The translations under genes and the position numbers were made by a program. 64,000 nt of DNA from Minisyncoccota bacterium (GTDB lineage: Bacteria > Patescibacteriota > Minisyncoccia > UBA6257 > GWB1-50-10): contig JBBDIH010000192.1 of the NCBI GenBank assembly GCA_040880505.1, positions 9,594-73,593 of the forward strand, written 5' to 3'. The notes under the pieces are model-generated. The model worked only from the letters and a program-made list of their open reading frames with translations, did not search any database and was not told where the DNA came from. Shown in pieces: positions 36,673-64,000 of the stretch (the first letter of the stretch is position 1; every line of letters begins with the position of its first letter).

Positions 36673-36745
36673 TGTCCCTACCAAGACTCGAACTTGGAGC
36701 GGGGGATTAGGAATCCCCAGTTTTATCCGGTTAAACTATAGGGAC
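36673..36745 (-). tRNA. tRNA-Arg (anticodon CCT)
   Basis: Hand-folded cloverleaf: acceptor GUCCCUA/UAGGGAC, D stem GUUU/AAAC, anticodon stem GGGGA/UCCCC with loop UUCCUAA, T arm CCAAG-UUCGAGU-CUUGG. 73 nt with no encoded CCA. Confidence 0.9.
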
Positions 36746-50083: not shown

Positions 50084-50746
50084 TTATTTCTTTAATCTTT
50101 TATTTATTATAATCTGTTGAACTCCTGAAAACAAAGCATTAAAAACCCAGTAAAGAGCTAAGGCTGATGGAAGATTAACTAAAATGACTATAGAAATGAT
50201 TGGAGCAAAATATACCATATTTTTTCCTATTTTAGCTTGCATGCTATTATTTTTATTATTTGATTTTGTAAGAGACAACGACAACCTTCCTTGCACATAC
50301 TGAAAAATAGCAGCAATAGCAGCAAATAAAATGCTTGGCTCAGCTAAGTTAATCCCTAAAAAAATGTGGCTGCTAAAAGCATTTATTGCTTCTATGTCTT
50401 GAAAAATTCTAAAAAGACCGAAAAATATTGGTAATTGAATTAATAAAACTAGAAAACTAGAAAAAGGGTTTAGTTTATTTTCTTTATAAAGAGCCATTAA
50501 TGCTTTTGCTTGTTCTTCTTTATTGTCTTTATGCTTCTTTTTTATCTCTTCCATGTCTGGTTGAAGTTTTTGCATTAACGTTTGGTTTTTTGCTCCTTTA
50601 TAGAAAAATGGTAATAAAATTACTCTTATGATGATGGTCAATATTATTATAGATAGTCCTAAGTCTTCGAGACCAAAATTCTCATATATAAAAACTAGCC
50701 CTTCTGATAAAGGAGAGTAGATTAGGTTATTAAAAAGTGTTTTCAT
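50084..50746 (-). CDS. yidC: membrane protein insertase YidC (short Oxa1-type)
   Basis: GLSIIILTIIIRVILLPF...QKLQPDMEEIKKKHKDNKEEQ...LYKENKLNPFSS is the YidC/Oxa1 core. Confidence 0.85.
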   Translation of the reverse strand: MKTLFNNLIYSPLSEGLVFIYENFGLEDLGLSIIILTIIIRVILLPFFYKGAKNQTLMQKLQPDMEEIKKKHKDNKEEQAKALMALYKENKLNPFSSFLVLLIQLPIFFGLFRIFQDIEAINAFSSHIFLGINLAEPSILFAAIAAIFQYVQGRLSLSLTKSNNKNNSMQAKIGKNMVYFAPIISIVILVNLPSALALYWVFNALFSGVQQIIINKRLKK

Positions 50747-50988
50747 ATTATTTTTTTAGTAATTTCTTCTTTTAATTCTCTAAAATTTAGCTTTTCTGCT
50801 CCTGGCTTTGTTATTATTCTTAAGTCACCATTAATTTTGTTTTTAAGGGTTTTAATTATATCCTTTATTCTTCTTTTTAAAAGGTTTCTTTCTGTGGCTT
50901 TTTTAGAAACCTTCCTGCTAATAATAATTATTAGCGGCTTTGCTTGTGAGTTTTTCTTGTATTTTTTAACAACAAATAAAGACCCCAT
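50743..50988 (-). CDS. rnpA: ribonuclease P protein component (short)
   Basis: ISRKVSKKATERNLLKRRIKD matches the RNR motif region. It sits between rpmH and yidC. Confidence 0.7.
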   Translation of the reverse strand: MGSLFVVKKYKKNSQAKPLIIIISRKVSKKATERNLLKRRIKDIIKTLKNKINGDLRIITKPGAEKLNFRELKEEITKKII

Positions 50989-51016
50989 GGGTTTTTAGGG
51001 TTTATTAATAAAGAAA

Positions 51017-51154
51017 CTAGGGGGTTAGTTTCTTTCTTTTTTTGTTTTTTCTGTTTTTTAAAACAGACCTACCTCCAGAGGTTTTTTTTCTAACTAAAAA
51101 TCCGTGAGTTTTTTTTCTTTTTCTTTTTTTGGGTTGATAAGTTCTTTTTGGCAT
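51017..51154 (-). CDS. rpmH: 50S ribosomal protein L34
   Basis: Not in the ORF track (45 aa). My translation is [45 protein letters not shown], which is canonical L34. Confidence 0.9.
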
Positions 51155-51287
51155 AAATATTGGTTGTCTTAATTTATGAGTTGAGTATAACTAAACAATA
51201 AAAATTTGGCAAGAAAAAAGTTTTACACAGGTTGTTAACACTTAAATAACAAAGGGGCTTAGCTTCTATATTGTAAGTCGTGTTATT
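51155..51287. other. rpmH-dnaA intergenic region with DnaA-box-like 9-mers (possible oriC part)
   Basis: TTTTACACA (51221-51229), TTGTTAACA (51232-51240) and TAAATAACA (51243-51251). Each is 1-3 mismatches from TTATCCACA. The region is AT-rich. Confidence 0.4.
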
Positions 51288-52652
51288 ATGTATAACATGG
51301 ATTTCGAAAAGACATGGCAAACTGTTTTAAGTGAAATAGAACTTCAAATTTCTAGGCCTAATTTTTTAACTTGGTTAAAACAAAGTCAATTAATAGAAAA
51401 GAAGACAAAAGATGGACTTGCGATTGTTAGCCTCCCAAATAACTTCGCAAAAGAGTGGGTTAAAAATAGATACCACAAAATAATATTAGGGTCGCTAAGA
51501 AGCATAGATGGTGATATTAAAAATATTGATTATGTTGTTGTAGCTTCTGACAACAAACAAAAAAAAGCGAGTAAAAAAAGAAAAGGTGATGGCTCTGAGG
51601 CTCAGCCATCTTTAGTTGAAACTAAAGTAGACCCCAAAACAAACCTAAACCCCAGATACAAGATGGAGACCTATGTTGTAGGATCATCTAACGAGCTTGC
51701 TCATGCTGCTGCTAGCGCCGTAATAAATGACACTGGTAAAAAATATAATCCTCTTTTTATATATGGAAAAGTTGGTTTAGGTAAGACTCATTTAATACAG
51801 GCAACTGGTAATTCTATTGTTGAAAATAAAAATTTAAACGTCTTATATGTAACTTCGGAAAAATTTATTAATGATGTTGTTTGGGCAATAAGAAATAAAA
51901 GAATGGAAGACACAAAAAAGAAATATAGAAATATAGATGTTTTAATAATTGATGATATTCAATTTATAGGGGGCAAGGCCGCCACAGAAGAAGAATTCTT
52001 TCATACTTTTAATGCATTATATGAACAAAATAAACAGATAATACTTTCTTCTGATAGACCTCCAGCAGCCATACCAACGCTTGAGGAAAGGCTAAGGTCT
52101 AGATTTGAGGGTGGAATGGTTGCCGATATAAGTTACCCAGATTATGAAACTCGTTTAGCTGTTTTAAAAAACAAGGTTAGTGAAAAACAAATTGATATTG
52201 ATGATAAAACACTAGAAACAATAGCGGCTAAAATACAGAGAAACATAAGAGAGTTGGAGGGAGTATTAAATAAGGTTGTTTTTTATCAAGAATTTAAAAA
52301 CGAAAAGATAGATTCTAAAAAGCTTGATAAAATAATAGGGGAAACCTCGAAGACATCCTCTAAGAATATAACCTCGAGCGAGATTATTAGTGTTGTTGCT
52401 GATTTTTTTGAAACAACTCCTGAAGAAATATCAAGCAGAACCAGAAAAAGAAAGGTTGTTGAGCCAAGACAAATATGTATGTATTTACTTAGGGAATTAT
52501 TAGATCTTTCTTATCCAAATATAGGAGAAAAAATAGGAGACAGGGATCACACAACAGCAATTCATTCTTGTGAAAAAGTATCAAAAGATATTAACAATGA
52601 TTCTGCATTAAACCAGAAGATCATGTTAATAAAAGAAAGAATTTATAAGTAG
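51288..52652 (+). CDS. dnaA: chromosomal replication initiator DnaA
   Basis: Walker A FIYGKVGLGKTHL, LIIDDIQFIGGK, and the domain IV segment PRQICMYLLRELLDLSYPNIGEKIGDRDHTTAIHSCEKV. Confidence 0.95.
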   Translation: MYNMDFEKTWQTVLSEIELQISRPNFLTWLKQSQLIEKKTKDGLAIVSLPNNFAKEWVKNRYHKIILGSLRSIDGDIKNIDYVVVASDNKQKKASKKRKGDGSEAQPSLVETKVDPKTNLNPRYKMETYVVGSSNELAHAAASAVINDTGKKYNPLFIYGKVGLGKTHLIQATGNSIVENKNLNVLYVTSEKFINDVVWAIRNKRMEDTKKKYRNIDVLIIDDIQFIGGKAATEEEFFHTFNALYEQNKQIILSSDRPPAAIPTLEERLRSRFEGGMVADISYPDYETRLAVLKNKVSEKQIDIDDKTLETIAAKIQRNIRELEGVLNKVVFYQEFKNEKIDSKKLDKIIGETSKTSSKNITSSEIISVVADFFETTPEEISSRTRKRKVVEPRQICMYLLRELLDLSYPNIGEKIGDRDHTTAIHSCEKVSKDINNDSALNQKIMLIKERIYK

Positions 52653-52794
52653 GGATTAAAAGTTATTAACAATCACCGCTATTTATTAACAAGAAAACAA
52701 AAGGTTATACATTATTAATTAACAACAAAAAGGTTTCTAATAAGACAAAAACTAAGGTTATCAACAGATTTTAACTAACACTACTACAACTACT
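52653..52794. other. dnaA-dnaN intergenic region with five same-orientation DnaA-box variants (candidate oriC)
   Basis: TTATTAACA at 52663 and 52683, TTATACATT at 52705, TAATTAACA at 52716 and TTATCAACA at 52758. All are on the + strand in AT-rich sequence. Confidence 0.5.
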
Positions 52795-53913
52795 ATGAAA
52801 TTAATATTATTAAAAACAAACTTAATAGAAGGATTAAATTCTGTGGAAAAGGCTGTTTCAAGTAATCAAAATTTACCAATATTAAACAATATAAAAATCA
52901 ACGTTATTAAAAACGAGGGTTTTATAGATTTAATTTCTACTGACTTAGAAATGGCAATTACAAAAAAGATTTCAGGTAAAATAATATCTGATGGGGTAGC
53001 TATTGTTCCTTTTAATCTTTTAAATAAAATAATTAAAAATTTAAATTCTGAAAAAATTAATATAGAAAAAAAAGAAAATAAATTATTAATAAACTCAGAC
53101 AACTATGAAGCTATTATAAATTGTGAAAATGAAGATGATTATCCAATAATACCCGACATACAAGACAAGAAAGAGGTTTTAAAGATAAAAAAAGACCTAT
53201 TTAAGGATGTTTTAAGTAAAACATTAGTAGCAACCAGTCATTCTGATATAAGGCCCGAAATAAATGGTATTTTTATTTATTATGATGGTAAAAACATGAT
53301 GTTTGCAGGAACGGATAGTTTTAGATTAATAGAAAAAACAATAGATTATAAAAACATAGAATCTTCTTTTAAAGAGGTTAATTTTACAATACCAACCAAA
53401 ACAGCAGAAACACTAATAAAAACATTAGAAGAAGATGATTTTATTAATATTTATGTAGATTCTAATCAAATTTTATTTGAGACAAAAAATTTAAAAATAA
53501 TATCTAGAATAGTAGATGGAAAATTTCCTGACTATAAGAATGTTATTCCAAAAGAAAGCAAAACAGATCTAACCCTAGATAAAAATGAAATATTAAATGC
53601 TATCAAAATAACCAGCTCTTTCTCGGGTAAAGCAAATGATGTTGTTTTAAATATAATAGACAAAGGAAGAGTTTTGGAGGTTTTAGCTTCTGATAACTCA
53701 TTAGGAGAAAATAAATACAGAGTGCCCATAAACAAAATAGAGGGAGAAAAAGAAGATCAAACAATTATATTTAATTGGAGGTATATAGAAGAAGGTATAA
53801 AAATTTTTGATGGTGATAAAATAAGATTTAATATAGATGAATCAGGCAAAACAGTTATAAAGGCAGACAGCAATAAAAATTTGCTTTATGTAGTTATGCC
53901 TATAAGAGGTTAA
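52795..53913 (+). CDS. dnaN: DNA polymerase III beta sliding clamp
   Basis: 372 aa immediately after dnaA. N-terminal pattern MKLILLKTNLIEGLNSVEKAVSSNQNLPILNNIKI and C-terminal LLYVVMPIR. Confidence 0.9.
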   Translation: MKLILLKTNLIEGLNSVEKAVSSNQNLPILNNIKINVIKNEGFIDLISTDLEMAITKKISGKIISDGVAIVPFNLLNKIIKNLNSEKINIEKKENKLLINSDNYEAIINCENEDDYPIIPDIQDKKEVLKIKKDLFKDVLSKTLVATSHSDIRPEINGIFIYYDGKNMMFAGTDSFRLIEKTIDYKNIESSFKEVNFTIPTKTAETLIKTLEEDDFINIYVDSNQILFETKNLKIISRIVDGKFPDYKNVIPKESKTDLTLDKNEILNAIKITSSFSGKANDVVLNIIDKGRVLEVLASDNSLGENKYRVPINKIEGEKEDQTIIFNWRYIEEGIKIFDGDKIRFNIDESGKTVIKADSNKNLLYVVMPIRG

Positions 53914-56417
53914 TTAAAAACTATAATAGACTCCCTTCTTTTGTTGTTGTTTTCATCTATAATTTCTATTTCTATTACATTTTGTGAAGATAAGTCGTTA
54001 CTTACATAGTAAAAATAATCGTGATTATTTTTAGATAATTTTTTAGAGCTTATAAGCAAGCCATTAAAATATAAATTTATTTTCTCTAAAATTTCTTCAG
54101 ATTCTATTTCAGCGGTAACAAATAAAGGGCCCTCGATAAAATCACCATTTTGAGGTTTTAAGTTATTTATTTTAATTATTGATTCCTCATTACTTTCTAT
54201 TGAATTTAATATAATGTTTTCCGGAACTGGTTTATTGTATTCAGAGAAATTTTCTATATTTTTTTCTGCCCAAACCCTAATGGCCTCTTCCCAATTAAAG
54301 AATTGAGAATCATTTGAACTTTCTCTTGGTGGATTTCCTAAAACATTTTCTTTATTTATCCAATAAAGAGAAGAGTGTAATTGTGGTAGTATTTCTTCAT
54401 CTATCTCAGCACTAAAAACAGCACTCCCATTTAACATGGGTTTGTTTGGGGGGGTTGTGGTTTCTGGTTTATTAAAAACATTAGAATTAAATTCTTTTGT
54501 CTCAAAAACCTCGTTTAAAAAATTGCTCCACATAGGTATCGCTGCTAATAAACTAGATCCTCGTGAGTGCATTTGCTGGTTATTATTATTACCAGCCCAA
54601 ACACCAACAACAAAAGAAGGGGTATAGCCAACTGCCCAAGCGTCTTTGTAATTATTAGTTGTACCAGTTTTAAGAGCAACCTCTTTTTCAGGGAAAATAG
54701 TTAAAGGAAGACTAGAGACAAGCAACCCAGACCTTAATTCTAAATCAGACAAGATTTTATTTATTTGTCTTACCGGCTGAGCCTCAAAAACTCTTTTTGA
54801 TGAGTCTGAATAATTTTCTGTGGTTTGATTTTTATCATTTTTTATTTCTAAAATTATTGATTGGTCATGGTAAACTCCGTCATCAGCTAGAGTTGAATAC
54901 GCATTAACAAGCTCTATTAATTTTACTTCTCCGCCACCCAAGACTAAAGATAAACCATATTTCCATCTTTCGTTTAGAGTATTAATGCCAAAATCTTTTA
55001 AGGTTTTTAAAACATTATCAAAACCAGCTAAATAAAGCATTTTAACAGAAGGAATATTTATTGATTGAGAAAGAGCCGACTCTAAAGACACTGGACCCCT
55101 AAAAGTATTGTCAAAATTTTCCGGATTAAAACAATCACTATTTATTAAAGATTGAGGAGTAACAACAGCGGGACAATCTGGGTCTCCCACCGTAAACTCA
55201 GTTAATACATCCATTAATACGCTTTTTGGGTGAAAGCCATTATTAAAAGCAGTTAAGTATGCGAATGGTTTTAATGTTGATCCAGGCTGTCTTAAGCCCT
55301 GTACTGGCACATTGAATTTTCCTTGTATTTCTTCGTTATAGTAGTCTCTAGATCCAACCATGGCTAAAATTTGACCAGTATTTGGGTCTTGAGCAACCAG
55401 CGCAGCGTTATTTCCTCCGTATAGTTCCTCGTTTCTTTTAGCTCCCTGTTCTACAACACGCTCTGCTATTTTTTGTATTTCCCAATCAAGTGTGGTTATC
55501 ACTTTTAGGCCGCCATTTAATGCTACTTGTTCACCATACTTACTTATTAAGTAACTCTTTACATATAAAGAGAAGTGAGGAGCCTTTATTTCTCCTATGT
55601 TTTGTGGGGAAAAATTTTTTTCTACATCTTCATTTTTTGCCTCTTCAGACTGTTCTTCTGATATAAAATTAAATTTAACCATTCTATCTAAAACATAATC
55701 CCTTCTATTTATTAATCCTTCTATATTATTTCCCCAAGGAGAATAATAACTTGGTGCCTGAGGAAGGCTGGCTAGAGTTGCCATTTCTGATAATGAAAGG
55801 TCTTGAATTGATTTATTAAAAAAAGTTTGGCTAGCCGCCTCTATTCCATAAGCATTTGATCCATAAGGAATTTGATTTAAATAAGCCTCAAATATTTCAT
55901 CTTTTGAGTATTTTGATTCTAGGTCCATTGCTAATATTAACTCTTTTACTTTTCTTGTTATTGTTCTTTCAGGGGTTAAAAAAGCATTTTTAACTAATTG
56001 TTGAGTAATTGTTGATCCGCCCTGAACTATTTCACCTTCTTTTAAGTTTGTTATGGCGGCCCTTAAAATTCCTCTCCAATCAAAAGCGGGCTGGTTATAA
56101 AAATCTATATTTTCAGCAGCCAATGTAGCGTCTTTTATTTCTTGTGGAATAGAATTAAAATCTACAATTGTTCTTTTTTCTTCTCCAAATATTTCATAAA
56201 GAAGGACCTCTGCGGTTCTGTCATATATTTTAGTTGATTGGCTAACTTTTCTATCATTAAAATCTTCAAGAGGTGGCAATTGATTTATGACTACTGTTGC
56301 ATAAACTGCCACACCAGCCAAAACAAAAAGAAACAAAAACAACGCACCTATAATAATCAAAATTAAGTTTTTTTTTCTTTTTTCTTTTTGTTTTTTTGTT
56401 TTTCTTCTTTTTGTCAT
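53910..56417 (-). CDS. class A penicillin-binding protein (glycosyltransferase + transpeptidase) with C-terminal extension
   Basis: GT51 motifs (AAENIDFYNQPAFDWRGILRA, GGSTITQQLVKN, RKVKE) and transpeptidase motifs STLKP and KTGTT. About 200 aa of extra C-terminus. Confidence 0.9.
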   Translation of the reverse strand: MTKRRKTKKQKEKRKKNLILIIIGALFLFLFVLAGVAVYATVVINQLPPLEDFNDRKVSQSTKIYDRTAEVLLYEIFGEEKRTIVDFNSIPQEIKDATLAAENIDFYNQPAFDWRGILRAAITNLKEGEIVQGGSTITQQLVKNAFLTPERTITRKVKELILAMDLESKYSKDEIFEAYLNQIPYGSNAYGIEAASQTFFNKSIQDLSLSEMATLASLPQAPSYYSPWGNNIEGLINRRDYVLDRMVKFNFISEEQSEEAKNEDVEKNFSPQNIGEIKAPHFSLYVKSYLISKYGEQVALNGGLKVITTLDWEIQKIAERVVEQGAKRNEELYGGNNAALVAQDPNTGQILAMVGSRDYYNEEIQGKFNVPVQGLRQPGSTLKPFAYLTAFNNGFHPKSVLMDVLTEFTVGDPDCPAVVTPQSLINSDCFNPENFDNTFRGPVSLESALSQSINIPSVKMLYLAGFDNVLKTLKDFGINTLNERWKYGLSLVLGGGEVKLIELVNAYSTLADDGVYHDQSIILEIKNDKNQTTENYSDSSKRVFEAQPVRQINKILSDLELRSGLLVSSLPLTIFPEKEVALKTGTTNNYKDAWAVGYTPSFVVGVWAGNNNNQQMHSRGSSLLAAIPMWSNFLNEVFETKEFNSNVFNKPETTTPPNKPMLNGSAVFSAEIDEEILPQLHSSLYWINKENVLGNPPRESSNDSQFFNWEEAIRVWAEKNIENFSEYNKPVPENIILNSIESNEESIIKINNLKPQNGDFIEGPLFVTAEIESEEILEKINLYFNGLLISSKKLSKNNHDYFYYVSNDLSSQNVIEIEIIDENNNKRRESIIVFN

Positions 56418-56512
56418 AATTGTCTAAATTTTATGAATCATAATTATGAAGGCCTCCACTTTAAAATAATAGTGTTTTTAAGGGAGGGGGTAAAGTTTAT
56501 TAAGTAAACCCA

Positions 56513-56550
56513 TTAATTAAAACCAGCCTATACGGGCTGGTTTTAATTAA
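56513..56550. terminator. bidirectional-type terminator hairpin
   Basis: 16-bp stem TTAATTAAAACCAGCC pairing with GGCTGGTTTTAATTAA. The GC core is followed by a U run on either strand. It lies downstream of the acidic ORF. Confidence 0.6.
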
Positions 56551-56568
56551 TTTATCTTGTGAATAAAA

Positions 56569-56751
56569 TTAAAAATCAGAATCTTCAGAATCCTCATCGT
56601 CATCATCATCATCATCGTCATCATCATCCCAGTCTTCATCATCGTCATCATCATCGTCATCATCATCCCAATCCTCATCCTCATCTAACTCGTCGTCTTC
56701 AGCTATTATTTCGAGGGTTTTTAACTCCTCTATTTCGTAAGTAAAAGTCAT
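56569..56751 (-). CDS. hyper-acidic 60-aa protein (poly-Asp with two Trp)
   Basis: ATG-initiated ORF with its own promoter (56806-56834) and terminator (56513-56550). 37 of the last 44 residues are D or E, with the repeat EDW-D10/D11. Confidence 0.4.
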   Translation of the reverse strand: MTFTYEIEELKTLEIIAEDDELDEDEDWDDDDDDDDDDEDWDDDDDDDDDDDEDSEDSDF

Positions 56752-56805
56752 TTTAGTTACTTTATTATTTTTTTATTGAAGCGACCTTTTTCAAATATCG
56801 CGGCT

Positions 56806-56834
56806 AGTATAATCTAGCTAAAAAGAAAGGTCAA
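56806..56834 (-). promoter_or_regulatory. sigma70-type promoter (minus strand)
   Basis: On the minus strand, TTGACC (56834-56829), a 17-nt spacer, then TATACT (56811-56806). The -35 abuts the motif palindrome. Confidence 0.55.
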
Positions 56835-56865
56835 CCCCGTTAGAAAATTTATTTTCTAACGGGGT
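56834..56865. repeat. dif-like palindrome ACCCCGTTAGA-N10-TCTAACGGGGT
   Basis: Arms at 56834-56844 and 56855-56865 flank AAATTTATTT. The arms are identical to the 19690-19720 site. Confidence 0.9.
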
Positions 56866-56881
56866 AAACTCCTAAAAATAT

Positions 56882-57343
56882 TTAGTAATCGCCGGCGGCT
56901 ATTGCAATTGCAATAGCGTCAGTTTCGTCGTCTATTAATTTATTTGTATTTATATTTAAAAAATAATTAACCATTTTTGCTACAGCTTCCTTTGATGATC
57001 GCCCATTACCAGCCACAGACAACTTTATTTGAGTCGGAGATAGCTCTATTAAATCAATATTATTTTTATGTAGAGTTGATATTATAACTCCTCTTGCTTC
57101 AGCAACCTTAATGGCTGTTTTTTTATTTTTTGAAAAAAATATTTTTTCAACACCAGCCTTGTCTGGTTTTATTCTTTTTATTATTTTTTCTAGTTCTTCT
57201 TCTATCTTTAATAATCTAGATTTTTGCTCTTTATTTTCTATTTTAAGTAAGCCACTTTCTTTGTATTTATATGTGCCTCCATTTTTTTCTATAACCCCAT
57301 AACCAACCCTAACTGTCCCTGGATCTATTCCTAAAAAAATCAT
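56882..57343 (-). CDS. ruvC: Holliday junction resolvase RuvC
   Basis: MIFLGIDPGTVRVGYGVIE and the C-terminal DETDAIAIAI motifs. Confidence 0.9.
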   Translation of the reverse strand: MIFLGIDPGTVRVGYGVIEKNGGTYKYKESGLLKIENKEQKSRLLKIEEELEKIIKRIKPDKAGVEKIFFSKNKKTAIKVAEARGVIISTLHKNNIDLIELSPTQIKLSVAGNGRSSKEAVAKMVNYFLNINTNKLIDDETDAIAIAIAAGDY

Positions 57344-57345
57344 TA

Positions 57346-58449
57346 TTATTTTAGTGGTAGAGTAAAACTAAAAGTTGTGCCTCTTCCCGGTGTTGAATTA
57401 ACCCATATTTTACCTCCATGTTTTTCGATTATGTTTTTTGAAATATATAAACCTAGACCGCTACCATTAGGTTCAACTTGAGCAGCTTTATCACCTCTTT
57501 TAAATTTTTGAAATATTTTAGTAGTTTCCTCTTGTGGTATACCTATTCCTGTGTCAGTTATTGATATAAGGGCATTACCATTGTTTTCTTCTAGGCTTAT
57601 GGTTACAGACCCATTTTCATTGTTATATCTTATTGCGTTGTCTACTAAAACAGATAGGGCCGTAGATATTCTTTCTGGATCCACAAATACTTCATATTTA
57701 GATTTTGCTTTAAAACTTACGTCTATATTATATTTTTTTGCTATAACTTTTGCCTCTTCTGCTATTTTTTCTATTATATTATTTATTATTATTTTCTCTG
57801 GCTTGTGGCCATATCTACCCTCTTCAATCTGAATTACGTTTAATAAATCATTTATTATTTTTAAACCTCTTTTAGCAACTTCAAGTCCTTGAGACGCTAA
57901 ACTCTTTGTTTCTTCTTCTTTTGTAGAGTTTTTAATACCCTCAAAGGTCCAACTAATAGCGCTTAAAGGGGTTCTTAATTGATGAGCTGATGTGGTTATA
58001 AACTCTGTTTTAGATTCTAATAAACCCTCTTCTCTTGTCTTGTTTTGAATTATTTTTATAAATTTTTTTGTATTTCCATAATCATCAATTACCTTACTAA
58101 GAACAGTTACTAAATTCATTTCAGGGGAGTCTGTTTTTATGTTTATAATTTGTGGCCAGTCGTTTGTTGAAATTTGATCAACATAAGGAGCTAAAGAAGG
58201 GAAAATAGTTTGTCCTAACGCTCTAAATTTTTCATCTTGAACAAGTTCTGGTGTTATTTTTTTTCCAACAACGTCTTTTTCTTTTAAATTAAATATTTTT
58301 TGAGCTGAATTATTTATCTTTTCTATTATAAAATCAGGAGAGTAAATAACGATTCCTTCTTCTAAATAATCCACAAAGAAATCAGATAAATCTTTATTGA
58401 TTTTTTTCGTTTCTTGTATATTCGAGTTTTTTTTAAAAAAGTTAAACAT
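57346..58449 (-). CDS. cytoplasmic PAS-domain sensor histidine kinase (orphan)
   Basis: H-box SAHQLRTPLSAI, N box LVDNAIRY, G boxes DTGIGIP and GSGLGLYISK. No TM helix and no adjacent response regulator. Confidence 0.8.
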   Translation of the reverse strand: MFNFFKKNSNIQETKKINKDLSDFFVDYLEEGIVIYSPDFIIEKINNSAQKIFNLKEKDVVGKKITPELVQDEKFRALGQTIFPSLAPYVDQISTNDWPQIINIKTDSPEMNLVTVLSKVIDDYGNTKKFIKIIQNKTREEGLLESKTEFITTSAHQLRTPLSAISWTFEGIKNSTKEEETKSLASQGLEVAKRGLKIINDLLNVIQIEEGRYGHKPEKIIINNIIEKIAEEAKVIAKKYNIDVSFKAKSKYEVFVDPERISTALSVLVDNAIRYNNENGSVTISLEENNGNALISITDTGIGIPQEETTKIFQKFKRGDKAAQVEPNGSGLGLYISKNIIEKHGGKIWVNSTPGRGTTFSFTLPLK

Positions 58450-60832
58450 TTATTATTTTTTTCATATTGCCCCAATTTTTTCCAATTTCAATATCAACTA
58501 AAAGAGGAACACTTAAAGAACTGACTTTTTCCATTATATTTTTTATCTGTTTTATCTGTTTTTTAACAATATCATCGCTTATTTCTATGAGCAATTCATC
58601 ATGAATTGATAGTAGTATTTTTACTTTATTTTCAATGCCCTCATTTTTAATATGATTATACGTTTCTATCATTGATAGTTTAATTATATCTGCTCCTAAG
58701 CTTTGTATGGGCATGTTTATTGCGGCCCTATCCATAAAGCCTCCACCTTTTATTTTTCTAATCCTATTATTTATATTTTTTACATAACCGTTTATTTTTG
58801 CTTCTTCTAGGGTTTTCTCTTGCCATTTTTTTACAGAAGGAAAATCTTTAAAGTATTTTTCTATAAACTCTTTAGATTTTTTAGTTGATAACCCACTTTG
58901 TTTACTAAAAGCCTTATAACCCATTCCATAGACAACTCCAAAGTTTAGGGTTTTTGCTAGCTCTCTTTGTTCTGGTTTAATATTCTTTATATTTATATTA
59001 AATATTTTAGAGGCTGTTGTTTTATGTATATCTAAACCTTCTTGGAAAGCTTTTTTCATGTTTTTATCATTTGATACATGTGCCAACAATCTAAGCTCAA
59101 GTTGGGAGTAATCAAAAGAAACTAATTTATATTCCTTGTTGCTTTCAAAGCTGCTCCTAATTTTTTTAGCTAACTCCGTTCCTTTAGGAATATTTTGTAA
59201 ATTTGGTTTTTCTGAAGATAGTCTTCCCGTGGCTGTTTTTGTTTGTAAAAAGTTAGTGTGGATCTTGCTGTTTTTTATGGATTCTATTAATGGTTTTATA
59301 TAAGTAGACTGTATCTTAAATAGGTTTCTATATTTTAATATCATATCTACAATAGGGTGTTCATTTTTTATTTCTATTAACGCATCTTCAGAGGTTCTAT
59401 ATTGGCCTGATGAAGTTTTAGGTCTTTCATTTTTAATTTTTAATTTTTCAAAAAGTATTTCACCAACTTGTTTTGGCGAATTTATATTAAACTCGATTTC
59501 AGCTTTTTTGTGGATTTGTTTTGTTAGAGATTTTATCTCTTTTTTTATTTTCTTACGAATACTTTCCAGTATTTTTTTATTTATCGTAATACCACAAGCT
59601 TCCATGCTGGCTAAAACTTTTACTAAAGGCATGTCTATTTCCTTAAATACCCTCATTAATTTTTCGTTATTTAGTTTTTTAGATAATGTGTGAAAAGTAG
59701 ATTGTAAGTCGTCGCTTTCTTTTTCAGTAAGTTGATAATTTTTTTTATCTGGATCTATTAACCATTTAGCTATTTTTACATCAAAAAGCGGTTCTTTAAT
59801 TTCAATATTTTCCTCTGTTTTTTTTATTATTTCTTTCCAATCAAAAGCAACTTTTATTTTGTTTGATTCTAATTTTTTTTTAACTTCTTTTGTTATTTTT
59901 TCAAAATCCTCTTTTTTAAAAATTAAGCAATCCTGTTTAATAAAATCCTCTTTATTTTTTTCTTTCCCAGTTAGTTTAGATGGCAAGGTTTTGAATCCCA
60001 AATCTTTCAAGTAGTTTATTAACTCACTAGTGTGTTCCATATTGTATTTAAGATTTTCTAGTTTAATTTCTATCGGCACGTTTCTATCTATGGTTGCTAG
60101 TTTTTTTGAAAGCAGAGCAACCTCTTTACTTCCTAAAATTTTCTTTTCTAGTTTATCTAACTCCTTTTTTCCATCTATTATTTCATAGATAGTTTCTATT
60201 GTTTTTTCTCCTTGCATTAATTTATCAGCTGTTTTTGGGCCCACTCCAGCTATTCCTGGAATATTGTCTGATGAGTCCCCAACTAAACCCTTATAGTCTG
60301 GGATTAGTTCTGGAGGAACCTTGAATCTGTTAATAACAGCTTTTTCATTATATTCAAACATATTTGAGACACCCCTTTTTGGGGTGAGAACAGTAATTCT
60401 ACTATTATCTATCAATTGAAGAGTATCTAAATCACCAGTTAGAATATTTATTTTAAGATTTTTAAGATTTTTCAGTTTTTCTACCAAGGTTCCAATAACA
60501 TCATCTGCCTCGAAGCCTGGTTTTTTTAGAACTTTTATACCAAATTTTTTAAATAATTTTTCAGCCTCAATGATTTGTTCTATTAACTCGTCCGGAGCTT
60601 TAGGTCTATGAGCTTTATATTCATCAAACATTTTTTTTCTAAAGGTTTTTTCGGGAGTATCAAAGGCTGCAACAGCATAATCAGGAATATGATTTTCCAT
60701 TATTTTTACTAATGTATTGCTTAATCCATAAAGGGCCCCTGTTGGTTTACCTTCTGGAGAAGAAAAGGGGGGTAAAGCATGAAAAGATCTATGAATGAAG
60801 GCGTTAGCGTCTATTATTAAAAGTTTTTCCAT
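58442..60832 (-). CDS. polA: DNA polymerase I
   Basis: 5'-nuclease domain (LLIIDANAFIHRSFHA, GIAGVGPKTA) and polymerase motifs (DYSQLELRLLAH, RELAKTLNFGVVYGM, SIHDELL). Confidence 0.9.
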   Translation of the reverse strand: MEKLLIIDANAFIHRSFHALPPFSSPEGKPTGALYGLSNTLVKIMENHIPDYAVAAFDTPEKTFRKKMFDEYKAHRPKAPDELIEQIIEAEKLFKKFGIKVLKKPGFEADDVIGTLVEKLKNLKNLKINILTGDLDTLQLIDNSRITVLTPKRGVSNMFEYNEKAVINRFKVPPELIPDYKGLVGDSSDNIPGIAGVGPKTADKLMQGEKTIETIYEIIDGKKELDKLEKKILGSKEVALLSKKLATIDRNVPIEIKLENLKYNMEHTSELINYLKDLGFKTLPSKLTGKEKNKEDFIKQDCLIFKKEDFEKITKEVKKKLESNKIKVAFDWKEIIKKTEENIEIKEPLFDVKIAKWLIDPDKKNYQLTEKESDDLQSTFHTLSKKLNNEKLMRVFKEIDMPLVKVLASMEACGITINKKILESIRKKIKKEIKSLTKQIHKKAEIEFNINSPKQVGEILFEKLKIKNERPKTSSGQYRTSEDALIEIKNEHPIVDMILKYRNLFKIQSTYIKPLIESIKNSKIHTNFLQTKTATGRLSSEKPNLQNIPKGTELAKKIRSSFESNKEYKLVSFDYSQLELRLLAHVSNDKNMKKAFQEGLDIHKTTASKIFNINIKNIKPEQRELAKTLNFGVVYGMGYKAFSKQSGLSTKKSKEFIEKYFKDFPSVKKWQEKTLEEAKINGYVKNINNRIRKIKGGGFMDRAAINMPIQSLGADIIKLSMIETYNHIKNEGIENKVKILLSIHDELLIEISDDIVKKQIKQIKNIMEKVSSLSVPLLVDIEIGKNWGNMKKIINV

Positions 60833-60874
60833 TAAGTTAATTATATCAAAAAAAGAACTATCTTTTTTATTGAG

Positions 60875-61321
60875 TTAGATGGAGTATTTTATTATTCGTT
60901 TGTTTGGGTTTTTTCCGTGCTCAAAATTAATTTTTATACAATTTTTAGGAAGGATTTTTTTAACTTTTTCTGGCCACTCTATAATTACTAAATTATCAGA
61001 GTTATTAATAATTTTATTTATATTTAGGTTTTCTAGGTCTTTTCCTGATTCTAAGCGATAAGCATCTACATGGTATAAATTCTTAAAACCAAACTCTTTT
61101 TTAGGAATGTTATACTTTTTTATTAGTAAAAAAGTAGGACTAGTTATGTTTTCTTTTATCCCTAGATTATTTCCTAAATATTTTGTAAAAGTGGTTTTCC
61201 CAGATCCTAAAACACCATAAAGGCAAATTGTAGTAGCTTTATTTTCCTCTTTTCTTAACTTTTCTAAAATTAATTTACTAAAACCTGTTAATTCATTTTC
61301 TTTTAATTTTATATTACTCAT
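60875..61321 (-). CDS. tsaE: tRNA t6A biosynthesis ATPase TsaE
   Basis: LYGVLGSGKTTFTK Walker A and HVDAYRL motifs of YjeE/TsaE. Confidence 0.85.
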   Translation of the reverse strand: MSNIKLKENELTGFSKLILEKLRKEENKATTICLYGVLGSGKTTFTKYLGNNLGIKENITSPTFLLIKKYNIPKKEFGFKNLYHVDAYRLESGKDLENLNINKIINNSDNLVIIEWPEKVKKILPKNCIKINFEHGKNPNKRIIKYSI

Positions 61322-62296
61322 CTACGCATCTATATTTAGGTGTTCGTATGCTTCCCTAGTCACAACTCTTCCGTTAGAGGTCCTTTTAATTAGCCCTAGT
61401 CTTAAAAGGAAGGGCTCATAAACATCTTCTATTGTTCCTTCTTCTTCGTTTAAAGAGGCAGAAATAGATTTTATTCCAACTGGTCCGCCATCAAATTTTT
61501 CAATTATTACTTTTAATAGTCTTCTGTCTGTTTCTTCTAACCCTAGATTATCTATTTCTAGCATTTGTAAGGTTTTTTCTACCGCGTTGTCATCTATTTT
61601 TCCTGATCCATTTACTTGTGCCCAATCTCTACATCTCTTTAAGAGTCTATTAGCTACTCTAGGAGTAAATCTTGAAGCTTTTGATAATTTTGAAACAGCT
61701 TTCTCTGTTATTTCTATTCCTATTAATTTTGCAGATCGTTTTATAATTTTTTGTATATCTTCTTCAGTGTAGTAATCAAGCTTAAATATTCCACCAAATC
61801 TGGATCTAAGAGGAGCGGAGAGCATATTAGCTTTAGTTGTAGCCGCAACCACCGTAAAAGGGGGTAGGTCTATAGAAAGAGTTTTTGCAGAGGGGCCCTT
61901 GCCGACTATTATGTGTAGTTTTCTGCTTTCTAGAGCGGGGTAGAGAACTTCTTCAACTGTTTTACCTAATCTGTGAATTTCATCTATAAAAAGTATTTCA
62001 CCTGGGTTTATATTTGTAAGTATTGCCGCAATGTCGCCTGTTTTTTCTAGTGTAGGACCAGACGTTGTTTTTACGTTGGTGTTCATTTCGTTGCCTATTA
62101 TATAAGCAAGAGTAGTTTTACCTAGTCCTGCTTGTCCATAAAAAAGCAAATGATCACAAGACTCCTCTCGTCCTCTTGCTGCTTCTATTATTAACTTTAG
62201 ATTTTCTTTTATTTTTTCTTGACCCACATAATCTTGCCATTTTTTTGGTCTAAGTTTTAAGTCTAAAGTTTCATCAAGTTTTGCTTTATCCATCAC
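61322..62296 (-). CDS. ruvB: Holliday junction branch-migration helicase RuvB
   Basis: LRPKKWQDYVGQEKIKENL, GQAGLGKTTLA, FIDEIHRL and TTKANMLSAPLRSRFG. Confidence 0.95.
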   Translation of the reverse strand: MMDKAKLDETLDLKLRPKKWQDYVGQEKIKENLKLIIEAARGREESCDHLLFYGQAGLGKTTLAYIIGNEMNTNVKTTSGPTLEKTGDIAAILTNINPGEILFIDEIHRLGKTVEEVLYPALESRKLHIIVGKGPSAKTLSIDLPPFTVVAATTKANMLSAPLRSRFGGIFKLDYYTEEDIQKIIKRSAKLIGIEITEKAVSKLSKASRFTPRVANRLLKRCRDWAQVNGSGKIDDNAVEKTLQMLEIDNLGLEETDRRLLKVIIEKFDGGPVGIKSISASLNEEEGTIEDVYEPFLLRLGLIKRTSNGRVVTREAYEHLNIDA

Positions 62297-62449
62297 GATG
62301 GTGTTTTATTTATATTAATTAATATTTCTTGACCTAATCACGATAACACTATTGTGATCCATATTATTATATTAGTATTTATAAACTTATTTTCCTAATC
62401 ATTTACATTTTAGGAGAGGCCATTTTCCTAAAACACCTTAAATTAAAGG

Positions 62450-62478
62450 TTGACAATAAAATATATTTATGCTATATT
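62450..62478 (+). promoter_or_regulatory. sigma70-type promoter driving the candidate ncRNA
   Basis: TTGACA (62450-62455), a 17-nt spacer, then TATATT (62473-62478). Confidence 0.55.
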
Positions 62479-62486
62479 TTTAACAT

Positions 62487-62645
62487 AAAATCCCTCAGTG
62501 ACCTGTGGGTGAATGGAACATCTCTCAGACTTAGGATCTTTCTGGCTCCGGCTGGGATTATCCTCGGAGGAGTTCCTGATTAACTAGTTTTCTAGTTTAA
62601 TTCTTTGCTTATTTGCCCACAGGTCTTTGAGGGATTTTTGTTTTT
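62487..62645 (+). ncRNA. candidate structured small RNA (~160 nt), family unknown
   Basis: A 23-bp closing helix (62487-62509 pairs with 62616-62638, one mismatch and one G-U) followed by UUUUUGUUUUU. Internal helices GGAAC/GUUCC and AGGAU/AUCCU, a C-UCCG-G tetraloop hairpin and an AACUAG-uuuu-CUAGUU hairpin. No ORF. Confidence 0.45.
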
Positions 62646-64000
62646 ATAAATTTAATTCTCCTGCTACTCTTTCAACTTCTTCGATACTTGTTATCCCTTT
62701 TATTATTTTTAATAAGCCGTCTTCTTGTATTGTCGTCATACCATTTTCTTCCGCTGCTTTTTTTAGGTCTGTCTCTGTTGGGTTTTGATATATAAGGTTT
62801 TCTATTTTTTCTGTTATTTCGAAAAGCTCAAATATCGATGTTCTGCCTTTATAACCAAGATTATTACAATCTTTGCAGCCAACAGGATCAAATAAAGTAA
62901 ATTTTTTATAATCATCCTTATTAACTCTTTCTGGTAGTTCAGAAAGAATTTTTTTTAACTTAGCTTCTAACTCTTTAGACACTTCTTTTTCTTTTTTACA
63001 ATTTTCACAGAGTCTTCTTACTAATCTTTGAGCAATTATCAAAGAAAGAGATGGTCCTATTATGTTGGGCTTAGATCCTAAGTCTATTAACCTAGGTATG
63101 GCTCCAACAGAATCATTTGTGTGTAGAGTAGAGAAAACCATATGACCAGTTAGAGAAGCGTTTAATGCTATTTTACTTGTTTCTTCATCTCTTATTTCTC
63201 CCACAAGTATGGCGTCTGGATCTTGTCGAAGAATAGATCTAAGTCCAGAAGCAAAAGTATAGCCTGAGCTTTTATCAACTTGAGTTTGAGATATTCCTTC
63301 TAAATGATATTCAATAGGGTCTTCAACTGTAATTATTTTTATTTCAGGCTTAGCTAATCTTTTTAAAAAAGCATAAAGAGTTGTGGTTTTACCGGAGCCA
63401 GTTGGACCAGTATTTAAAATTAAACCATTTGGCTTGGCGATTTGTTTATTAACTATGTTTAAGTCGTCTTTTCTCCAACCTAAATCTTCTAAGGATATTT
63501 TTAAAGCGTCTGGATCAAGAATTCTTAAAACCCCAGTTTCTCCGTATTCTGAAGGAATAATAGAGGTTCTTATTTCTATGTCTTTTTCTGATATTGAGAT
63601 AGTAAATCTGCCGTCTTGTGCTTCATCTTTTACGTTTAGTTTTAACCCTGAAAGCAGTTTAATCCTGGTTACTGCAGAGTGATAAATTTTTAGATCTAAT
63701 TCTTTAGTAATTATATGTAAAATACCATCTATTCTTAATCTAATATCACTAGATTCTTTATTTGGTTCTATATGAATATCTGAAGCACCTAAAGCCATTG
63801 CTCCTGCTAAAATTATTTCTAATATTTGTGATGTTTGAGGGCTTTCAAAGCTGTCTATTAACTTAGATAGATTATCTATTGTGTTTATTTTGTCGCTTAA
63901 TTTTTCAATTCTTTCTGGATTTATGTTTACCTTGCCTGTTATTTGTTCTCCTTCATCATGAACAAATTTGTAATGTTCCCAGGCATGTTTTAGCCCAGAC
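62644..64000 (-). CDS. PilB/GspE-family type IV pilus/type II secretion ATPase (5' end beyond window)
   Basis: Walker A GPTGSGKTTTLY, ILVGEIRDEET, FSTLHTN and a tetracysteine cluster (CENC...CKDC). My translation stays open upstream of the ORF-track Met at 63798 to the window edge (..ILEIILAGAMALGASDIHIEP). Confidence 0.85.
   Translation of the reverse strand, partial: SGLKHAWEHYKFVHDEGEQITGKVNINPERIEKLSDKINTIDNLSKLIDSFESPQTSQILEIILAGAMALGASDIHIEPNKESSDIRLRIDGILHIITKELDLKIYHSAVTRIKLLSGLKLNVKDEAQDGRFTISISEKDIEIRTSIIPSEYGETGVLRILDPDALKISLEDLGWRKDDLNIVNKQIAKPNGLILNTGPTGSGKTTTLYAFLKRLAKPEIKIITVEDPIEYHLEGISQTQVDKSSGYTFASGLRSILRQDPDAILVGEIRDEETSKIALNASLTGHMVFSTLHTNDSVGAIPRLIDLGSKPNIIGPSLSLIIAQRLVRRLCENCKKEKEVSKELEAKLKKILSELPERVNKDDYKKFTLFDPVGCKDCNNLGYKGRTSIFELFEITEKIENLIYQNPTETDLKKAAEENGMTTIQEDGLLKIIKGITSIEEVERVAGELNL

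Follow-up and report, generated by a model that had tools for sequence, protein, structure and literature searches.

The subject of this study is a short element in a 64,000-nt stretch of DNA, hereafter called the window (assembly GCA_040880505.1, Minisyncoccota bacterium, contig JBBDIH010000192.1, positions 9,594 to 73,593 of the forward strand), where it lies between ruvB and a gene for a GspE/PilB-type ATPase, here called pilB. By comparing the element with its homologues we showed that window positions 62485-62645 on the plus strand constitute a conserved gene, present as a single copy per locus in the Parcubacteria group, that is predicted to specify a structured RNA of ~160 nt under its own promoter. 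As judged from its sequence and predicted fold, the RNA forms a new family that matches no described RNA family (Rfam 15). We consider it somewhat better than an even bet that the gene yields a stable, independently transcribed RNA, its transcription being deduced from the promoter and other sequence features, and that this RNA exists as a folded, protein-bound particle.

The closest relatives were collected by scanning a genome collection with RuvB, which gave seven Jorgensenbacteria/Paceibacterota genomes with 66-73% identity. In all seven, a homologue of the RNA was found with nhmmer directly upstream of ruvB and divergent from it. The conserved blocks of these seven copies were turned into a DNA pattern, fixing CCTGTGGG, TGGYT..RRCTGG and CCTC, and this pattern was scanned over a metagenome collection. 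It matched 74 loci, of which 67 were real copies and seven were chance matches with no 3' partner block, promoter or model score. The metagenome copies, the genome copies and the window were combined into an alignment of 54 distinct full-length copies (A2), from which duplicates had been removed. In addition, the RNA was present in all four loci that were picked by PilB similarity only (86-90 bits), though these did not fit the DNA pattern; they were labelled Brenner-, Magasanik- and Patescibacteria. A divergent form scoring 19-33 bits was carried by six of six Moranbacteria loci, one reached via PilB and five via RuvB. Hainich and Rifle are among the sites from which the contigs came. By their record labels the carriers thus include Jorgensenbacteria and Moranbacteria, which are separate candidate phyla of the Parcubacteria group in the NCBI taxonomy.

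With the covariance model one copy was found per locus and no second copy elsewhere in the 64-kb window. A second weak match of the model in locus L084 (8394-8519) was an unrelated hairpin. The model found no copy in one Doudnabacteria and one 'Saccharibacteria' ruvB locus or in loci from outside the candidate phyla radiation (CPR), and two patterns found none in viral contigs. The E-values of the model are rough, owing to a shortened calibration. All searches covered locus-sized pieces of genomes, and it is for these pieces that the statements on one copy and on the absence of a canonical 6S RNA (below) hold.

The helices of the RNA are backed by covariation. In A2, 93.1% of the cells at paired positions were standard pairs, versus 74.8% with shuffled partners and 37-53% with partners slid by 1-3 columns. 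Changes on both sides of a pair, that is compensatory changes, were seen at 30 of 44 pairs, and the covariation score was 0.571 vs 0.214. On none of the pairing and covariation measures did any of 500 shuffles equal the observed value. Within the helices G.U or U.G occupied 280 cells and A.C or C.A 42, two pairs fixed by the search pattern being excluded from the count. Since a G.U pair would read as an A.C mismatch on the minus strand, we concluded that the plus strand is the structured one. A tandem U.G/G.U was present in all 54 copies, both of its pairs being fixed by the pattern. The element is more than a product of chance: dozens of related genomes carry it, with compensatory base changes, at the corresponding position.

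The window copy itself was matched by the covariance model at 62480-62644 on the plus strand with 113 bits, and with 36 bits on the minus strand. Its predicted folding energy was -74.5 kcal/mol on the plus strand, compared with -40.2 +/- 3.8 for 200 dinucleotide shuffles (z = -9.05), none of which folded as well; the minus strand folded more weakly (-58.1 kcal/mol, z = -6.8). The G+C content of 0.46 is a local peak in an A+T-rich genome, the flanking intergenic DNA having 0.20-0.33. ARAGORN found no tRNA or transfer-messenger RNA (tmRNA) in the element.

A preliminary description of this DNA, made from the letters of the window without database searches, had proposed a promoter (TTGACA, 17 nt, TATATT) followed by an element without an open reading frame. 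Both proposals held: no open reading frame of at least 30 amino acids was found within the element, and the promoter was found in the place given for it. It matches the consensus at 11 of 12 positions, and its 17-nt spacer ends in TGc, providing the TG of an extended -10. By its sequence it is a near-consensus promoter of the sigma-70 type with extended -10. The arrangement TTGAC[AT]-17 nt-TGnTAnnnT was conserved upstream in ~50 of the 54 copies and also in five of the six Moranbacteria copies. The predicted start, 7 nt past the -10, falls at the base of the closing helix P1, with a median offset of 1 nt across the family. The excess of G.U cells, the promoter and this start position are three independent lines that put the functional molecule on the plus strand.

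At the other end, the U-tract UUUUUGUUUUU that the same description had placed directly after the end helix is present, and at least five U within 7 nt after P1 were counted in 29 of the 54 homologues. P1 encloses ~105 nt, unlike the 3-8-nt loop of a canonical intrinsic terminator, and a scan of 62200-62800 for such a terminator (a short G+C-rich hairpin with a 3-8-nt loop, then a U-tract) found none. Given the ~105 nt enclosed and a U-tract in 29/54, P1 is predicted to be terminator-like only. In many other copies, and in the Moranbacteria copies, a separate canonical hairpin-plus-U terminator lies slightly downstream and the whole fold is kept. We concluded that P1 is more than a terminator stem, because it is kept even where another terminator is present.

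The ~160-nt structured RNA with a multi-branch fold that had been suggested was borne out by the comparison (Table). The end helix had been given as 23 bp (62487-62509 with 62616-62638); the helix and its positions stood, and the 23 bp had to be corrected to 22 pairs, one of them G.U, plus one U.U mismatch. All the inner helices that had been named (GGAAC/GUUCC, AGGAU/AUCCU, the C(UCCG)G hairpin and AACUAG-UUUU-CUAGUU) were recovered in the minimum-free-energy fold. A lack of conservation or covariation in relatives, which the description had named as a refutation of its proposal, was looked for and is not the case.

In the family consensus P1 measures ~25 bp overall and consists of a freely varying outer part of ~16 bp, the C.A position and an inner 8-bp helix CUGUGGGC/GCCCACAG. 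The linker between P1 and P2 is mostly A and is reduced to a single A in L070. P2 (~24 bp) begins with the 11 bp of P2a, followed by YAG and 3-8 nt on the 5' strand versus UC on the 3' strand. Above these stand GGA/UCC, a 1-nt bulge or mismatch, four variable pairs and a conserved YUGG/CUGG containing the tandem U.G/G.U. The tip is a covarying closing pair (C-G, U-G or U-A) with a UNNG loop (UCCG, UUCG, UCUG, UUUG or UCAG). The 3' junction strand of the family carries one or two hairpins, P3 and P4, variable in sequence and length. The conserved parts were thus the inner P1 helix, its C.A mismatch (48/54), the G.U pairs in the P2 helix and the GGR/YCC step, and the freely varying parts were outer P1, P2a and P3/P4. 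The sequence of the inner P1 helix was also conserved in the copies found via RuvB, which are independent of the DNA pattern. RNAalifold run on MAFFT alignments had drawn P2a as a local GGA/UCU hairpin; this was rejected after a diagonal scan and replaced by the pairing 40-50/95-105.

Table. Features of the RNA gene and of its two neighbours in the window (coordinates of the window; position 1 is its first letter).
Feature	Coordinates	Strand	Remark
-35 hexamer TTGACA	62450-62455	+	TTGAC[AT] at the same distance in ~50/54 homologues
Extended -10 TGcTATATT	62470-62478	+	TATATT at 62473-62478; TGnTAnnnT kept family-wide
Predicted transcript, ~160 nt	62485-62645	+	start predicted ~7 nt past -10, end predicted at the U-tract
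P1 outer helix, 5' strand	62487-62501	+	pairs with 62624-62638; 14/14 family pairs changed on both sides
C opposite 62623	62502	+	C-G in the window; C.A mismatch in 48/54 homologues
P1 inner helix, 5' strand CUGUGGGU	62503-62510	+	pairs with 62615-62622 GCCCACAG
P1-P2 linker GAAU	62511-62514	+	1-8 nt in the family
P2 arm	62515-62576	+	minimum-free-energy fold
P2a	62515-62525 with 62566-62576	+	10/11 pairs with compensatory changes
P2 asymmetric internal loop	62526-62532 opposite 62565	+	fold prediction
P2b, including tandem U.G/G.U	62533-62546 with 62551-62564	+	5/11 pairs compensatory, 4 invariant
P2 UCCG tetraloop	62547-62550	+	fold prediction
P3 variable hairpin, 3' junction strand	62578-62602	+	one or two hairpins in homologues, differing in sequence and length
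3' junction strand CUUUGCUUAUUU	62603-62614	+	short P4 hairpin here in most relatives
P1 3' strand	62615-62638	+	inner 62615-62622, G62623, outer 62624-62638
U-tract UUUUUGUUUUU	62635-62645	+	terminator-like together with P1; overlaps the pilB stop codon
pilB (GspE/PilB-type ATPase), 3' part, runs off the window	62644-63999	-	Pfam T2SSE, E = 4e-116; convergent with the RNA
ruvB	61322-62296	-	Pfam RuvB_N, AAA_lid_4, RuvB_C; divergent from the RNA promoter, next in the minus-strand string

The Moranbacteria form retains the inner P1 helix, though both of its strands have changed, now reading CUGUAGRC/GUCUACAG, and it preserves the bulged YA, the GGR/YCC-UC-G step, the apical hairpin and one G.U. 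An extra 5' hairpin with the invariant loop CUAUCUUUU, supported by covariation, is inserted between P1 and P2, and P4 is the sole hairpin on the 3' junction strand; there are ~30 nt on each side of the junction. A pairing of the loop CUAUCUUUU with AGAYAU was considered but is not supported, its U/C variation being uncompensated. Common to all forms of the predicted RNA are two long arms, a few sequence-conserved helical segments with bulges, and a junction that tolerates the gain and loss of hairpins. The PilB homologue of the Moranbacteria is ~1005 amino acids long (L100, 60-3080; also L098, L099, L101 and L102), with two T2SSE stretches, and is thus a tandem (fused double) secretion ATPase, the protein of the window lineage having ~555 amino acids. 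In L098 an open reading frame of 65 amino acids (2632-2829, minus strand of the locus; AAAGGAG-N8-ATG) follows right after the RNA on the same strand. As that copy has no U-tract and the reading frame comes directly after it, the RNA of L098 might serve as a 5' leader.

Comparison with known RNA families was made with Rfam 15 (4227 families), using gathering thresholds on the whole window and E <= 10 on the element region, 17 homologue loci and the divergent copy L095. No family matched the RNA at gathering thresholds, and the matches at E <= 10, to small nucleolar RNA, long non-coding RNA, microRNA and terminator-like models, were chance only. This covariance-model search had been recommended in the preliminary description, which had found no likeness by eye to signal recognition particle (SRP) RNA, RNase P RNA, tmRNA or E. 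coli-type 6S RNA; its judgement agrees with the outcome. A description of this RNA was not found in the literature on non-coding RNAs of Patescibacteria, Parcubacteria or Paceibacteria, nor by its conserved sequence strings. The sole RNA gene recognised by Rfam in the 64-kb window was a tRNA at 36673-36745 on the minus strand (59.6 bits). Elsewhere, in L051 (2164-2279), a near-perfect palindrome of ~115 nt that is unrelated to the RNA was matched weakly on both strands by plant microRNA precursor models.

Several specific identities were tried and rejected. In SRP RNA (4.5S RNA, ffs) the domain IV hairpin, with its GNAR tetraloop and conserved symmetric and asymmetric loops, binds Ffh; in our RNA the P2 loop is UNNG instead of GNAR, and there was no Rfam SRP match. 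The UGUNR motif of the SRP Alu domain could be read in CCUGUGGGC, but this segment is a helix with compensatory change. For 5S rRNA, RNase P RNA, tmRNA and tRNA no Rfam or ARAGORN match was obtained, and complete CPR genomes, Paceibacteria included, carry separate 5S and RNase P RNA genes (PMC8172020). By inspection the P2 internal loop is no K-turn, since its non-bulged strand is UC and not GA and its bulged strand has no GA beside the upper helix. Of a hammerhead-like core (CUGAUGA...GAAA) the window has only CUGAUUA, and L016 does not conserve it. For a LexA box (CTGT-N8-ACAG) the two halves, CTGT and ACAG, stand more than 100 nt apart, and a -10-like TAnnnT with which the 3' junction strand begins is inconsistent among copies. 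The raiA motif RNA (PMC10861870, PMC11706538) resembles our RNA in its medium size, several helices, strong covariation, restriction to certain phyla, discovery by comparison and orphan function. Its sequence and fold are unrelated, and the present RNA is confined to CPR bacteria of the Parcubacteria group and fixed between pilB and ruvB.

The reading that we favour, a stable and probably protein-bound RNA, was derived from what is kept in the family. Recognition by protein is suggested because conservation falls on short helical segments, bulges, a mismatch and G.U pairs and not on a junction core, the junction hairpins coming and going. Catalysis, ligand sensing and seed pairing are disfavoured because the window type has no long conserved single strand and its junction hairpins are gained and lost. 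The RNA would accordingly be of a scaffold or decoy type rather than a ribozyme, a riboswitch or a seed-pairing small RNA (sRNA). In the proposed mechanism one or more proteins would bind the inner P1 helix with its mismatch and the upper P2 arm. P1 would protect both ends of the RNA, and in the window lineage it would double as a terminator. Transcription of the RNA, and the transcript itself, probably also act on pilB read-through into ruvB, by interference or by pairing; we take this to be a secondary, lineage-dependent effect, likely where the genes abut.

Several points weigh against this reading. Most copies in A2 were gathered by the pattern, which makes the invariance of the pattern-fixed columns partly a matter of construction; unbiased conservation comes from the protein-found copies only, which are few (17) and support the same core. 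No partner protein is consistently encoded beside the RNA, the neighbours being pilB, ruvB, tsaE, polA/exo and fpg. Transcription, ends and abundance were inferred from sequence alone. The antisense position in the spacer between pilB and ruvB is invariable, so the main function could be an antisense one. Finally, the near-perfect P1 of ~25 bp would be a substrate of RNase III, so that the mature form may differ from the primary transcript.

A more specific version of the favoured reading, which we put forward tentatively and regard as less likely to be right than wrong, is a hitherto undescribed housekeeping-type ribonucleoprotein RNA specific to the Parcubacteria group. Such an RNA would be abundant, end-protected and two-armed, and the partner bound by its conserved inner P1 and upper P2 would be a core machine or a protein particular to the lineage. 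Candidates for the partner include RNA polymerase, bound in a manner unlike that of 6S RNA, or a partner linked to the genes for the type IV pilus, DNA uptake and recombination, in whose midst the RNA is always encoded.

The genomic position of the RNA bears on the question of antisense action. The RNA is convergent with the GspE/PilB-type ATPase gene in every window-type copy that has enough flank, and ruvB is on the other side in nearly all. In annotated relatives the gene order is fpg, pilB - spacer - ruvB - tsaE - 5'-3' exonuclease/polA - histidine kinase; all of these genes are on one strand, and the RNA is antisense within the pilB-ruvB spacer. The end of P1 is a median of 6 nt from the pilB stop codon, which the RNA gene abuts or overlaps in most window-type copies. 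In five lineages (L033, L035, L048, L052 and L067) the pilB frame runs 13 nt into the P1 3' strand and the U-tract, so that any pilB transcript there necessarily extends into the RNA gene. The overlap gives these PilB proteins Lys-rich C-terminal tails (e.g. KKTA, KEKTA), RNA and coding sequence being on opposite strands. In most loci the start of ruvB lies 61-160 nt from the RNA, with no good promoter-like site for ruvB there: the minus-strand match before ruvB had a median of 8/12, compared with 10/12 for the RNA promoter, and no minus-strand promoter-like site was found in the window at 62200-62800. In the window lineage ruvB may thus be transcribed by read-through from pilB, which would cross the RNA gene in antisense direction.

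It is accordingly conceivable, but on the whole rather doubtful, that the main function is cis-antisense control of pilB-ruvB, in which the strong convergent promoter of the RNA interferes with transcription reading through from pilB and the RNA pairs with the complementary spacer of the pilB-ruvB mRNA, which is then cut (e.g. by RNase III), so that the ratio of the pilus ATPase to the repair gene products is set. The constant location opposite the same-direction string pilB-ruvB-tsaE-exo/polA, the short gap or overlap, the weak promoter-like match before ruvB and the U-rich sequence that the minus strand also has after P1 are all consistent with it. GadY of E. coli is a cis-encoded antisense sRNA that acts on gadX-gadW. 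Like the gene of such an sRNA, ours points towards and directly adjoins the 3' end of an upstream gene, here pilB, in the spacer before ruvB, and the RNA is fully complementary to any read-through transcript of pilB. The difference lies in the elaborate, covarying fold, specific to one strand and with sequence-conserved helices; such a compensatory fold, and the excess of G.U over A.C, would be needless for a plain antisense RNA. Moreover, the overlap with pilB is not universal and was lost in some lineages that retained the RNA. In the Moranbacteria, and in several lineages besides, pilB is parted from the RNA by a canonical bidirectional terminator or by a whole gene (Gmad2, GIY-YIG), and in one lineage (L039-type) a gene for an apparent lamin-tail-domain (LTD) protein stands in place of ruvB; the RNA is kept in both cases.

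Further observations were made on these neighbourhoods. The replacement of ruvB in L039, L040, L043, L059, L076 and L083 was judged by eye from its sequence to be a membrane-anchored LTD-like protein, and in the L039-type lineage it is followed by an apparent tsaE and a prepilin-like gene. In the window, abutting or overlapping genes for PilB, RuvB, TsaE, PolA (5'-3' exonuclease and polymerase), a histidine kinase, RuvC and a class A penicillin-binding protein occupy 53910-63999 on the minus strand. In relatives the order pilB-ruvB-tsaE-exonuclease-kinase is preserved, fpg and ruvA lying immediately upstream. A gene for a pilus ATPase thus sits inside a conserved group of genes for recombination and repair. 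The partial PilB of the window was 100% identical to a protein of a metagenome-assembled genome named Candidatus Paceibacterota bacterium at NCBI. At 50084-53913, ~10 kb from the RNA, lie yidC (minus strand) and dnaA and dnaN (plus strand), which places this part of the window near the replication origin region. A scan of the window for DnaA boxes (TTATCCACA, <=1 mismatch) gave 19 sites where 18.9 were expected, with no enrichment or cluster.

The next alternative is a divergent 6S-type RNA that would bind the sigma-70 holoenzyme as a mimic of an open promoter, P1 being the closing (downstream) stem, P2 the apical arm and the junction the bubble. The preliminary description had named the architectures of 6S and Y RNAs as analogies only, and both fail on their defining features. 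The RNA does resemble 6S RNA (ssrS; RF00013 and related families) as a stand-alone molecule of ~150-200 nt (150-190 nt in this family) with paired ends, in which a long closing stem and a second, imperfect apical arm are joined by a central domain, and as a single-copy gene with a strong housekeeping-type promoter. Small hairpins can occur in the central domain of 6S RNA, and in some 6S RNAs they stand on the 3' junction strand (PMC8876501), as they do here. The ~30 nt on each side of the Moranbacteria junction also fit. No canonical 6S RNA was seen in the sequence examined, a small fraction of each genome. What defines a 6S RNA, however, is a central bubble that is largely single-stranded and whose 5' strand, of about 10 nt or more, templates the product RNA (PMC8876501). 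Our RNA has no such open, template-like bubble: its 5' junction strand has just 1-8 nt in the window type, down to the single A of L070, and in the Moranbacteria this strand forms the stable, covarying hairpin. Sequence conservation of the inner closing helix, as seen here, is foreign to 6S RNAs, and the Rfam 6S models found no match on the window region, the 17 homologue loci or L095 even at E <= 10. We therefore regard a 6S-type RNA as unlikely.

It is very improbable that the functional element belongs to the minus strand, as a pilB 3' untranslated region with a bidirectional terminator or as a processing hairpin of a pilB-ruvB mRNA. The element does come directly after the pilB stop codon and the minus strand folds well (z = -6.8). 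The A-rich 5' flank of P1 becomes U-rich sequence after P1 on the minus strand, so that A-rich and U-rich runs flank P1 in the manner of a bidirectional terminator. Against this stand the ratio of G.U to A.C cells and the tandem U.G/G.U in 54/54 copies (pattern-fixed), together with the 113 bits scored by the model on the plus strand versus 36 on the minus strand. The plus-strand promoter is kept in position and sequence. Furthermore, a terminator needs P1 only and not the conserved P2, copies with a separate terminator keep the fold, and the terminator scan found no canonical terminator.

A bacterial Y RNA (YrlA-like) tethering the Ro60/Rsr protein seems scarcely credible to us. Y RNAs and our RNA share a terminal stem formed by both ends, with a sequence-conserved helix beside a mismatch or bulge, a variable central module of several hairpins, often a four-way junction, and a U-rich 3' end. 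The Ro60-binding motif of Y RNAs, GNCGAAN0-1G (GGUCCGA in animals), is located in the 5' strand of the stem, and the Y RNA/YrlA genes lie within ~4 kb of the TROVE/Ro60 gene on the same strand (PMC4201824). Neither form of the motif was present in the 5' strand in the window and A2, and no T-loop-like hairpin of a tRNA-like T-arm was seen. No TROVE-domain (rsr) gene was found within 4 kb in the window or annotated relatives, where the neighbours are pilB, ruvB, tsaE, polA, histidine kinase, ruvC, fpg and ruvA, and no Y RNA or YrlA model of Rfam matched. The last alternative, a miniature inverted-repeat mobile element or chance palindrome, suggested by the 23-nt inverted repeats ~105 bp apart, is already refuted by the single copy per locus with none elsewhere in the 64-kb window, by the fixed syntenic position across lineages whose RuvB are 54-73% identical, and by covariation, the arms changing by compensatory substitution rather than being identical copies, with the promoter conserved.

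The bacteria of the CPR make up a large share of bacterial diversity and have tiny genomes. To our knowledge, very few regulators have been recognised in them and almost no non-coding RNAs have been described beyond rRNA, tRNA, RNase P RNA and tmRNA. If the ribonucleoprotein proposal is true, a new RNA-protein system would be gained for bacteria whose genomes are very small and in which few regulators are known. The covariance model allows the RNA to be annotated in metagenome-assembled genomes and metatranscriptomes to be searched for it. Its fixed place between a pilus ATPase gene and Holliday-junction/repair genes provides a concrete, testable hypothesis. The RNA is kept across Jorgensen-, Brenner-, Magasanik- and Moranbacteria and Paceibacterota. 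Being single-copy, strongly promoted, structurally constrained and kept across several candidate phyla, it is a good candidate for a central regulator in these organisms, or for a core function that has so far escaped notice.

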